From a virus (lineage: Duplodnaviria > Heunggongvirae > Uroviricota > Caudoviricetes): 4,408 nt of DNA. Of this stretch, positions 1 through 2,496 are shown piece after piece. The stretch covers positions 1-4,408 of IMG/VR virus record IMGVR_UViG_2700989487_000014; one strand, given 5' to 3'. A program made the position numbers. Position 1 is the stretch's first letter. The number at the start of each line of letters is the position of its first letter.

Positions 1-2496
1 TCTGAGGCAGCACCTGGCACGGCTGGGACGGAAGTCGCTGTCGTTCTCAAAATCGGTGGAGCTGCATGACAAAGTCATCGGGCATTATCTGAACATAAAA
101 CACTATCAATAAGTTGGAGTCATTACCATGCATTTAAGTCGCTTGAAATTGCTATAAGCAGAGCATGTTGCGCCAGCATGATTAATACAGCATTTAATAC
201 AGAGCCGTGTTTATTGAGTCGGTATTCAGAGTCTGACCAGAAATTATTAATCTGGTGAAGTTTTTCCTCTGTCATTACGTCATGGTCGATTTCAATTTCT
301 ATTGATGCTTTCCAGTCGTAATCAATGATGTATTTTTTGATGTTTGACATCTGTTCATATCCTCACAGATAAAAAATCGCCCTCATCTTGGAGGGCAAAG
401 AAGATTTCCAATAATCAGAACAAGTCGGCTCCTGTTTAGTTACGAGCGACATTGCTCCGTGTATTCACTCGTTGGAATGAATACACAGCGCTGTGTTTAT
501 TCTGTTGTTTGCGTGAAAATGAAATCCGCCTGAGCGGGTTATGACCACTTTTTGTTTGGGTTTCGTTGGTGAGCGTGGTTTACAGGATTATTTGATATAC
601 CCCATAACTCTGACTCGCTTATCTCTACACGAGAGAAAGACCTGCTTTCTTTCAGTTCTTTTATAAACCTAGAACCTAAGATGACATCTATTGTACCAGA
701 AAGTTCTTGTAAAAGATCTTTGTTTTTTCTGAGGAAGAAAATATCTTCTTTATATTTAATTTTTACATAGAATTTATTCTGTATTTTTAATATATCAAAG
801 CATGGCAGATATCTATATCCCTCATATTTTCGCCACTGCTTAACAATTATAACATCTTTTTCATTTACTGCATTAATCAGCCCAAGACCAAGTACAGGTA
901 TGAATATTCTATTGTCTGCCGAAAGCGTACAATTATCACCACCAGGCAAATATGTATAAATCATGTCGGAATTTTTATACGCATCAACGAATGCACGTAA
1001 GAAGCGTACATATTTTTGCCATCCGTTTATACCGAATTTACCATATAAGTATTCTTTATTTGTTAGAAGAAAACTATTTGTATCAGGATCCTTATCTACA
1101 GACCTGTCGATAAGATCTCCAACTACGTTTACAAAGTCAAAGACAGAGTTTAATAAGAACAATTGTCTTTCAGTAGGGCGAATTTCAATTATGTAGCCAG
1201 GATGAAGACGATATTGCATCTGCTTACGAAGTATACCGAACGCTTGGGTCCGAGCATCTGAAAGCAACTTCTTGTCGCCATCGCCGTGAGCATTGTTTCT
1301 AATAAAACTGATATAATTTGCTAATTTTTCAGCCTCTTTTTTGTGTTTTTTTCGCTCTGATGCTGAGTCTATTGGTTTTGGTATGGACTTGTAATCAATC
1401 TTCTTCATTACGTACCTCATGCCAATGGAATGGATTCCCCTTTAACCTTTTGTCTTCCTTGACAAGTTATACCGAACTCACCTGGCTTGCTATACCAAAC
1501 TCGATGATTCTTGCGCTCAATACGTTGCAGGTTGCTTTCAATCTGTTCGTGGTATTCAGCCAGCACCGTAAGGTCTATCGGATTCAGTGCGCTTTCTACT
1601 CGTGATTTCGGTTTGCGATTCAGCGAGAGAATAGGGCGGTTAACTGGTTTAGCGCTTACCCCAACCAACAGGGGATTTGCTGCTTTCCATTGAGCCTGTT
1701 TCTCTGCGCGACGTTCGCGGCGGCGTGTTTGTGCATCCATCTGGATTCTCCTGTCAGTTAGCTTTGGTTGTGTGTGGGAGTCGTAGTCCTGAACGAAAAC
1801 ACCCCGCAATGGCACATTGGCAGCTAATCCGGATTCGCACTTCCGGCCAATGCTTCGTTTCGTATCACACACACCAAAGCCTTCTGCTTTGAATGCTGCC
1901 CTTCTTCAGGGCTTAATTTTTAAGAGCCTCACCTTCAATGGTGGTCAGTGCGTCCTGCTGATGGCTTAAAATTACAAGGAAGATTGTATGTTGTAAACAA
2001 GAAATATTGTAAAAAAGGGACGTGAAAAACAAACTCCATTGTTTTTAAACGGAAAATAGTTTGTTTTTTTGTTATCGAGATTGAGGTGGGGATTACTGAT
2101 TGCAGGTTCCGACTACATCACCAACAAAGGATTTGGTTGATGTAAGTTGTTGCATACCTGGGATGTTCATTACTTTGGAGTAAAGAGCTTTTTTGTCTGT
2201 AGTGATTGACCAAGTTTCAACGGTTATGCCTCCTCCAGACTGGTATTCTCCTACCATAGTGTTCGATGACAAAGCAGTGTATTTCATCTCTGGATAGACG
2301 CCAGAAACTGATTCATAAACTGATGATTTATCGCCATTTATTGTTACGTTGAAAACGGAATCTTCCGTGCTGTCTTTTGTAAACTCGTAACGATCGCCAT
2401 TCATTGCCCCGTACCCGTGCAGGTTTGTGACAATCCAGCATTCAGAATTGGCGCTGGTAGTTAAGAGTATTGAGAGTAGCGCCGCAATCCTGATCA

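Follow-up and report, generated by a model that had tools for sequence, protein, structure and literature searches.

Genes and features of the locus

The window (the whole stretch of 4,408 nucleotides that was analysed, positions 1 to 4,408 of IMG/VR virus record IMGVR_UViG_2700989487_000014) was assigned to an imm434 lambdoid prophage, of which it forms the pL region, with the minus strand corresponding to the pL transcript. Comparison with phage 434 showed 100% identity across window positions 128-1500. The leftward gene order from pL was N, a gene of 293 aa, a hairpin, the small RNA (sRNA) PreS with its terminator tL2a, and ea10. The upstream cassette gene (539-1420, minus strand, annotated start at 1408) corresponded to the phage 434 'Nun C-terminal peptide-containing protein', and Pfam and PADLOC searches with the 293-aa ORF produced no match. 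The downstream gene ea10 (DUF2528; 123-350, minus strand) was cut off by an IS1 end at window positions 1-128. The flanking genes had been taken as orphans in an earlier note made from the sequence alone; they are instead the truncated ea10 and the phage 434 gene, and the non-coding stretch described there as otherwise unremarkable contained both tL2a and PreS. The equivalent site in GenBank J02459 and in the RefSeq lambda record was without any annotated feature.

Directly 5' of the hairpin, a conserved A-rich leader, AACAGAAUAAACACAGCG, was found at 489-510 on the minus strand. Mosaic breakpoints, seen as ends of homology at window positions 492, 501, 510 and 519, were mostly located at or beyond the upstream edge of this leader. 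In addition, an annotation of phage Sf6, 'bsq4; boundary sequence', mapped to window positions 379-491.

PreS/LPR1 and the terminator tL2a

PreS is a lambda Hfq-dependent sRNA encoded between ea10 and ral and ending at tL2a, with a form of approximately 88 nt and a processed form of 68 nt; it was detected in the lytic cycle only, from 10 min post induction, and it raises DnaN synthesis and aids phage replication (10.1101/2024.10.31.621285). The origin of the PreS 5' end is unexplained in the preprint, and the terms 'hairpin', 'stem-loop', 'RNase III' and 'RNase E' are all absent from its main text (10.1101/2024.10.31.621285). The position it gives for the 5' end may be approximate.

A match to primer P810 and sequence comparison with lambda placed an 88-nt PreS/LPR1 homologue at 370-457 on the minus strand. 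It is the same sRNA, differing from lambda PreS by only 3 nt, all in the terminator loop, and within the pL operon it likewise lies upstream of ea10. Primer P810 (GAGCAATGTCGCTCGTAACT) matched the minus strand at window positions 457-438; processing to the 68-nt form would place the 5' end near position 437. The terminator scan called the intrinsic terminator tL2a, which forms the PreS 3' end, at 369-398 on the minus strand, with a stem at 398-377 followed by U6 and AU. A terminator or tL2a is annotated at the equivalent site in phages 434, O276 and Sf6.

The inverted repeat under study (459-486) was found outside mature PreS as its authors define it (5' GAGCAAUG... to tL2a, start at 457), lying immediately 5' of the sRNA. 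The authors' full PreS deletion retains the hairpin, as primer P969 keeps ...GTGAATACACG, and G457 was the sole base common to PreS and the extended stem. Among the three earlier suggestions, that of a part of a small RNA comes closest and is partly supported: the repeat adjoins PreS/LPR1 within the precursor region of the pL transcript, but it lies just outside the mature sRNA as delimited in the preprint, given that P810 starts at 457 and P969 keeps the hairpin. Literature searches returned only the preprint and one review, whether for tL2a, for a published version of the PreS work or for the processing of pL operon RNA by RNase III. A paper on HnrS was set aside as it deals with a different sRNA. 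Hyman and Honigman (1986) reportedly described processing sites in the pL operon.

Inverted repeat and predicted RNA fold

Reading of the sequence and an inverted-repeat search placed the left arm, GTGTATTCA, at 459-467 and the right arm, TGAATACAC, at 478-486, separated by CTCGTTGGAA at 468-477. The perfect 9-bp repeat with a 10-bp spacer was thus present with the sequence and coordinates reported before, as was the plus-strand T-rich tract that follows it, AGCGCTGTGTTTATTCTGTTGTTT. With imperfect arms at 449-470 and 475-496, it was the longest inverted repeat found in the window by the repeat search. A search of the window for further copies of the half-site produced 3 matches against 1.25 expected, of which 2 were the arms themselves, leaving no further copy beyond chance. 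Of 500 shuffles of the window that preserved dinucleotides, 48% contained one or more perfect 9-bp inverted repeats when the spacer was allowed to be 3-40, and 14% did so when it was at most 10. The bare 9-bp repeat is therefore not beyond chance statistically, and it is taken as a real feature because of its folding, conservation and covariation rather than the 9-bp match itself.

RNA fold prediction, which the earlier note had proposed as a check, produced a stable stem-loop on the minus strand (-24.0 kcal/mol, z = -4.4), and none of 200 shuffles folded as well. The plus strand produced -21.1 kcal/mol with z = -2.7, and in each of the four hairpin families described below the sense strand folded more stably than its antisense counterpart. 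In the pL transcript the complete class-A RNA hairpin, delimited by the predicted fold and by covariation, occupied 457-488 on the minus strand and had 14 continuous pairs (488-475 with 470-457), two of them G·U, closed by a CAAC tetraloop at 474-471. G457 was both the closing base of the stem and PreS +1.

The inverted-repeat search and the fold also showed an imperfect lower stem extension reaching 449-496 on the minus strand, where GC at 491-490 paired with GC at 455-454 past an A·A mismatch, together with other weak pairs. In the predicted fold this extension pulls the first PreS nucleotides into the helix, and RNAalifold favoured pairing of G+1 within PreS's own 5' stem. The flanks GCA|C...G|AGC were identical across all four hairpin families. 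Both this RNAalifold preference and the shortness of the Watson-Crick helix, which would need the imperfect lower stem to serve as an RNase III substrate, count against processing by RNase III.

Conservation and covariation of the hairpin

The feature was conserved in 2237 of 5426 complete E. coli genomes. Among sRNA-carrying loci, which were gathered by exact-match anchors within the sRNA so that sRNA-less or very diverged loci were under-sampled, the hairpin ended at PreS +1 in 367 of 369, and in the remaining 2 it was interrupted by IS903. In HK022 and O276, IS903 lies within the 5' arm. Its linkage to the PreS/LPR1 locus was thus constant across phages, and every locus retrieved by a pattern search with the seed only also had the 5' anchor and the hairpin. 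The 367 hairpins fell into four families, A (196), B (110), C (35) and D (26), with the hairpins of this window and of lambda both belonging to family A. Families A and B were each found with both sRNA body types, and 23 distinct contexts were found upstream of the hairpin among the E. coli-type sRNA loci (n = 247). At least 4 E. coli genomes kept the hairpin while PreS was absent, which hints at a PreS-independent role.

Covariation was assessed on a MAFFT alignment of representatives of all four families that was not fitted to the structure. In this alignment 9 of the 14 stem pairs had double-sided changes, and 91.3% of the cells were paired compared to 29-48% when the partners were slid. 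The covariation score was 0.675 against 0.169 in shuffles, none of 500 of which reached 0.675, and at most 0.187 with the partners slid; the four families may represent just three or four evolutionary events. Both sides of stem columns 4-10 differed between families. On the pL strand every wobble read as G·U, and A·C did not occur. The loop-proximal pairs A-U, U·G and U-A did not vary, save for U·U in family D, while the loops did. Taken together, its structure, strand, position relative to PreS and covariation showed that the hairpin is a conserved stem-loop of the pL RNA.

An Rfam search at a permissive threshold produced no match at E ≤ 1 overlapping window positions 365-500. A scan of genome contigs mostly retrieved low-coverage lambda contamination of approximately 48 kb in unrelated genera and added zero species diversity.

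Proposed release of PreS by RNase III

On balance, the repeat is probably the core of a hairpin at which RNase III processing sets free the 5' end of PreS. We infer the nuclease and the cut site, and likewise the effects of the hairpin on PreS and on the upstream mRNA. The transcript concerned is the N-antiterminated leftward early pL RNA, in which the hairpin lies between the variable cassette gene and PreS. RNase III would recognise an upper helix of 11-12 bp with a U-A/U·G distal box beside the loop and would cut no more than 1 nt from G457, where pairing at the base of the stem is weak. The cut would free an 88-nt PreS precursor with its 3' end at tL2a, which would then be trimmed to the 68-nt form, probably by RNase E, while the hairpin would stay on the upstream cassette mRNA as a 3' cap.

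For RNase III of E. coli, the canonical distal box is U-A/U·G and the minimum helix is 11 bp, and in the proximal box of a minimal substrate G-C/C-G inhibits binding at position 2 and cleavage at position 4 (PMC1540722). The hairpins agreed with the helix length, as families B-D had 11 columns, from U·G to U-A, above a mismatch at column 2 (with one U·U within the 11 upper columns of family D), and family A had 12 Watson-Crick or G·U pairs above a U·G at column 2. They also agreed with the distal box: with the 'UA/UG' orientation and numbering taken from the text of PMC1540722 and the arm orientation assumed from its X:Y notation, all 27 distinct hairpins carried U-A and 24 of them U·G, with U·U in its place in family D. 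Both pairs were invariant in an alignment of families A and B only (A5). In families B-D, position 2 of the proximal box was occupied by A-U or U-A, position 3 by A-U and position 4 by U·G. In family A, positions 2 and 4 both held U-A when read in the loop-adjacent register and G-C when read in the distal-box register, and because of the G-C pairs this family fits the in-vitro rules worse than B-D. For family A, cleavage at a distance of 13 nt 3' from the loop would yield G457.

Comparison with known systems

DicF of the Qin prophage has a long form whose 5' end is made by RNase III and a short form made by RNase E, with the 3' end at a terminator (PMC10448788). Like PreS, DicF is an sRNA within an early polycistronic operon (dicBF) of a lambdoid prophage, with long and short forms (88 and 68 nt for PreS) and a 3' end at a terminator (tL2a for PreS). 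The two sRNAs have no sequence similarity, and nuclease dependence was shown for DicF whereas for PreS we infer it.

The hairpin also resembled the T7 R1.1-type signals and uR1.1 (PMC1540722) in its 11-bp upper helix, its loop-adjacent U-A/U·G distal box and its weak pairing at the cut site, which is here a predicted one, and families B-D shared with them the A/U pairs at proximal-box positions 2-3. Family A, unlike R1.1 and uR1.1, had an extra C-G beside the loop and, when read in the distal-box register, G-C at proximal positions 2 and 4. As for the product of the cut, the hairpin remains on the upstream mRNA in T7 early mRNAs, and the hairpin described here would stay on the upstream mRNA likewise. 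Finally, Sf6 bsq4 (AF547987) is the same DNA and comprises part of tL2a, PreS and the hairpin; it is annotated merely as a conserved module junction and was here resolved into an sRNA gene and a covarying hairpin.

Alternative explanations

A rather unlikely alternative, yet one to be weighed seriously, is that the hairpin acts in the pL RNA as a barrier to 3' exonucleases or as a folding insulator that keeps the variable cassette mRNA apart from PreS, with the PreS 5' end produced by RNase E/G or by decay up to the structure. The covariation and the position of the hairpin fit this explanation equally well, and family A has G-C pairs in the proximal box where, in vitro, they are unfavourable to RNase III. 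The hairpin also persists in prophages without PreS, where cIII follows directly, and it adjoins a cassette-exchange hot spot with the 23 upstream contexts, where insulating the folding of the sRNA would be useful. A barrier leaves unexplained, however, why the loop-proximal pairs, U·G included, are invariant amid varying loops and a varying central stem, and why the distance from these pairs to PreS +1 is fixed at 13 columns. RNase E prefers AU-rich sites in single-stranded RNA, whereas a cut at G457 (CACG|GAGC) would lie within a stem, and decay up to the structure would need a 5'-to-3' exonuclease, of which we know of none in E. coli able to trim back to a structure.

It is very improbable that PreS is a primary transcript with the repeat overlapping its promoter or a controlling operator, even though the 88-nt form begins just past the repeat and the preprint is silent on where that end comes from. 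The promoter scan found no sigma-70-like site upstream of PreS in either the class A or the class B context, the would-be -10 element in the 3' arm was wholly different among the four families, and PreS was seen only after derepression of pL, from the first time point onwards.

There is similarly little chance that the block is no more than a 'boundary sequence', conserved for its use as a homologous-recombination linker between modules, in which the palindrome is incidental or a hairpin or cruciform recombination site at the DNA level. The Sf6 annotation covers the equivalent of this block, the breakpoints of homology are concentrated immediately upstream of the hairpin, and a hairpin in single-stranded DNA of the same strand would also tolerate G·T wobbles. 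A linker needs sequence identity, however, whereas four unrelated stems with preserved pairing were found; moreover, the breakpoints were scattered over approximately 30 nt instead of at one point of the hairpin, the element had no linked site-specific recombinase, and the block holds an experimentally shown sRNA.

The perfect 9-bp dyad with its 10-bp spacer had also been read as the binding site of a dimeric regulator, which is now scarcely credible. Four unrelated stem sequences occupy the same spot and are unconserved across families that reassort with both sRNA body types, and in each family the asymmetric G·U pairs, present on one strand only, interrupt the DNA dyad at identical positions. 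The window had no extra half-sites, and neither conserved symmetric half-sites near a promoter nor, in the scan, any promoter-like site nearby was found. The remaining earlier proposal, a plus-strand intrinsic terminator shielding the cassette from convergent transcription, was suggested by the T-rich tract 3' of the repeat in this window and deserves almost no credence, as the terminator scan called the repeat on neither strand, the plus-strand stem is A/U-rich, with no more than 3 G-C pairs and with C·A mismatches, the tract starts 6 nt past it and is replaced in many homologues, and to our knowledge the equivalent lambda region has no rightward promoter. A G+C-rich stem with an immediate U-run was found on neither strand, and the earlier observation that the repeat is not a terminator for the minus-strand genes held, since no U-run follows it on that strand.

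Implications for lambdoid phages

Release of PreS by RNase III from a covarying hairpin that ends at PreS +1 would provide a concrete and testable biogenesis mechanism for this sRNA. It also offers a functional reason for the extreme conservation of the lambdoid 'boundary sequence', which was present in approximately 40% of complete E. coli genomes, Shiga-toxin phages included. For annotation, this 'intergenic spacer' is densely functional.

In Salmonella P22-like phages, the same hairpins precede a PreS-like sRNA that has a different seed and no Rfam match; the Salmonella-type locus produced only sub-threshold Rfam hits, the nearest being the Aggregatibacter sRNA JA04 with 25 bits against a gathering score of 81. 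We tentatively consider it quite possible that bsq4 is a two-part RNA module, composed of an Hfq-dependent sRNA gene and a dedicated RNase III release hairpin of conserved structure and extending to these phages, and not a passive recombination linker. If so, the module has been kept whole beside a hot spot that swaps unrelated cassette genes, and any cassette placed upstream would be automatically separated from the sRNA and capped by a 3' hairpin.

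Genome context of the inverted repeat

Positions 128-1500 of the window showed 100% identity to phage 434 and the remainder matched E. coli prophages sharing its immunity type. The pL early-left transcript corresponded to the minus strand, and the leftward order was cI, Hex, oL/pL, nutL, N (1417-1740, minus strand), a 293-aa gene annotated as 'Nun C-terminal peptide-containing protein' (539-1420, minus strand), an intergenic region and ea10/DUF2528 (123-350, minus strand), with the lambda tL2a terminator at 398-369 (minus strand). The earlier note had placed the repeat between two orphan genes; both were found to be known pL-operon genes, ea10/DUF2528 and the 293-aa gene of phage 434. 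The latter had no match in Pfam or PADLOC and had in common with HK022 nun only the last ~15 codons and the 3′ flank (539-584), which places a mosaic joint inside the coding region. On the minus strand, its stop codon was followed by a short G-C hairpin (CCGC-UCAG-GCGG) and a U-rich tail (516-537), and other cassettes (e.g. lambda ral) finished in a small terminator-like hairpin of their own shortly before the conserved block. A perfect 11-nt inverted repeat (AAAAACAAACT / AGTTTGTTTTT) was present at 2025-2068, between pL and Hex in the imm434 oL operator region.

Insertion sequences were found at both ends of the window. An IS1 end (1-128) truncated ea10, with a 75-aa ORF running into the IS, and this junction was found in none of the complete E. 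coli genomes in the collection, where matches began at 128. Homology to intact imm434-type prophages ended at 4120-4142 and was followed by an IS3-family transposase fragment interrupting replication gene O (4120-4408), so the prophage is probably defective.

Hairpin structure and the adjoining sRNA

The inverted repeat was exactly as the earlier note had described it, with arms GTGTATTCA (459-467) and TGAATACAC (478-486) and a 10-nt spacer, and a repeat search returned it as the longest inverted repeat in the window. By itself the bare repeat was nothing unusual. Of the dinucleotide-preserving shuffles of the window, 48% held one or more perfect 9-bp inverted repeats with 3-40 nt between the arms, and for spacers of ≤10 nt the share was 14%. 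What speaks for a genuine feature is instead its context, its strand-specific folding and the comparison with relatives.

The minus-strand RNA formed 14 continuous pairs (488-475 with 470-457) with a CAAC tetraloop, and two C·A mismatches of the plus strand became G·U pairs. The 66-nt fold of the minus (pL-sense) strand had −24.0 kcal/mol (z = −4.4) compared with −21.1 kcal/mol (z = −2.7) for the plus strand. Beyond an A·A mismatch, the flanks contributed two further G-C pairs. The stem was closed by G457, the first nucleotide of PreS.

PreS, formerly LPR1, was described in a 2024 preprint (10.1101/2024.10.31.621285) as a lambda sRNA that depends on Hfq, is encoded between ea10 and ral and has its 3′ end at tL2a. 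It was detected there as a band of ~88 nt and a stronger processed form of ~68 nt, and its synthesis was confined to the lytic cycle, beginning with the first time point that followed cI857 induction. In that preprint the cloning primer starts with GAGCAATGTCGCTCGTAACT (minus strand of the window, 457-438), so PreS extends from 457 to ~370 (88 nt). The window copy differed from lambda at 3 nt, all in the terminator loop. Since the preprint's full-deletion primer retains ...GTGAATACACG, the sRNA as delimited by its authors stops just short of the hairpin. Nowhere does the preprint's main text use the terms 'hairpin', 'stem-loop', 'RNase III' or 'RNase E'. Among the interpretations in the earlier note, only that of the repeat as part of a small RNA pointed in the right direction, in that the hairpin adjoins PreS, though it does not lie within the sRNA.

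Conservation of the hairpin

Of 5426 complete E. coli genomes, 2237 carried the block from 351 to ~510, as did 329 phage records, among them lambda, Stx phages, Sf6, HK620 and P22-like phages. In Sf6 the equivalent of 379-491 is annotated as 'bsq4; boundary sequence'. Exact PreS matches in Pseudomonas, Shewanella, Neobacillus, Oceanobacillus, Kitasatospora and other genera were on low-coverage contigs, several of ~48.4-48.5 kb (loci L225-L245), and look like lambda DNA contamination of assemblies.

Homologous loci were gathered by exact-match anchors inside the sRNA and the set was then widened to 369 with loci from P22-like Salmonella phages, which carried a diverged PreS-like sRNA (ST160, locus L255 700-850; L256; L257 onward). 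This relative had the 5′ stem GAGCAAUAUCGCUC as in PreS but differed in its seed (GACUCGUUCUGGUUAAUCG) and terminator, and had no Rfam match. In this sample, anchored on the sRNA, a hairpin ended at PreS +1 in 367 of 369 loci. The two exceptions, HK022 (L005 2082-3138) and O276 (L002), carried IS903 inside the 5′ arm (window-equivalent 480/481), which naturally disrupts the hairpin while PreS downstream stays intact. The 247 loci that carry the E. coli-type sRNA had 23 distinct sequence contexts upstream of the hairpin.

The hairpins fell into four families with unrelated central stems. Written as 5′ arm-loop-3′ arm with a slash before PreS +1, these were family A, which includes the window and lambda (CUGUGUAUUCAUUC-CAAC-GAGUGAAUACACG/G, 196 loci), family B (CCUAUAGCAGAUU-UACG-AGUCUGCUAUGU/G, 110 loci), family C (CCUAAUGACCAUU-UUAAU-AGUGGUCAUUGU/G, 35 loci) and family D (CUUAAUGCGGAUU-CUGUG-AUUCCGCAUUGC/G, 26 loci). 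Hairpins of families A-D preceded the Salmonella sRNA, and both sRNA body types (E. coli and Salmonella) were found with families A and B. With stem columns numbered from the base in a common register, column 1 was C-G(+1) in all family consensuses and in 25 of 27 distinct hairpins, column 2 was a wobble or mismatch, and column 3 was U·G except in family A, which had G-C. Two to four different standard pair types were seen at each of columns 4-10. Columns 11-13 were A-U, U·G (family D, U·U) and U-A, and the loops beside them varied in sequence and length.

Nine representatives were aligned with MAFFT without reference to a structure. In this alignment 91.3% of cells were paired, 9 of 14 pairs had changes on both sides and the covariation score was 0.675 against 0.169 in shuffles (0/500 reached 0.675) and ≤0.187 with partners slid; the four families may trace back to no more than three or four evolutionary events. 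A model-fitted alignment restricted to families A and B gave 97.4% paired cells and 8 double-change pairs. All tolerated non-Watson-Crick pairs were G·U on the pL-sense strand and none was A·C, and in all families the sense strand folded better than the antisense.

Since pairing rather than sequence was conserved, the hairpin is not merely a recombination linker. The dimeric regulator site proposed in the earlier note did not hold, as a sequence-specific DNA operator is at odds with four unrelated stems and strand-asymmetric wobbles, and no further half-sites were found within the window. Its other proposal, an antisense terminator on the plus strand, failed as well, since a terminator scan called no intrinsic terminator on either strand and the T-rich tract begins 6 nt past a weak stem and is not conserved. 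A promoter is not supported either, since no sigma-70-like site was called upstream of PreS and a -10 region would have to fall in the 3′ arm, which is variable.

Putative processing by RNase III

The three fixed loop-proximal pairs, the variable loops and the constant distance from those pairs to PreS +1 point to recognition by a protein through helix geometry and a small number of pairs. A minimal E. coli RNase III substrate has a helix of at least 11 bp between cut site and loop, a distal box containing U-A together with U·G, the latter being stringently required, and a proximal box in which A/U pairs are preferred and G-C blocks binding at position 2 and cleavage at position 4 (PMC1540722). 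Families B, C and D had 11 columns above the column-2 mismatch, loop-adjacent U-A/U·G (U·U replacing U·G in family D) and, at positions 2 and 3 of the proximal box, A/U pairs. Family A likewise had U-A/U·G, but with one additional C-G pair at the loop; its proximal-box positions 2 and 4 were G-C in the distal-box register and both U-A in the loop-adjacent register. The uR1.1 product is 28 nt, 11 bp with a 2-nt 3′ overhang (PMC1540722). By this geometry the predicted 3′-arm cut would fall between G458 and G457 in the loop-adjacent register and one nucleotide later in the distal-box register, in either case at most 1 nt from the published PreS 5′ end.

The closest precedent for PreS release is DicF of the Qin prophage, in which RNase III forms the 5′ end of the long form and RNase E that of the short form, the 3′ end lies at a terminator and an rnc mutant loses the upstream mRNA (PMC10448788). 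From the RNase III rules, the cut geometry and this precedent, a sequence of events can be proposed in which N-antiterminated pL transcription would proceed through the cassette gene, hairpin and PreS, RNase III would cleave at the hairpin base, the 88-nt PreS would be freed and later trimmed to 68 nt, and the 3′ stem-loop would stay on the upstream mRNA. The last step resembles T7 early mRNAs, which keep a 3′ stem-loop. RNase III processing is, on balance, a somewhat likely mechanism.

PreS and the DNA block (bsq4) were already known, and the window carries the ordinary lambda/434 version. The hairpin as a covarying, position-locked RNA element of four families, its fit to RNase III determinants and the Salmonella-type sRNA relative were absent from the literature examined and from Rfam. 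In at least four E. coli genomes (e.g. L247 1486-1560), the hairpin and GGAGCAAT were joined directly to the cIII leader with PreS, tL2a and ea10 absent, and this rare arrangement leaves room for a role independent of PreS, e.g. as an mRNA 3′ cap or folding insulator. With modest confidence, the hairpin can be classed as a nuclease-processing hairpin flanking an operon-embedded sRNA. In the broader sense, it is very likely an RNA hairpin of the pL transcript that is under selection and linked to the PreS boundary.
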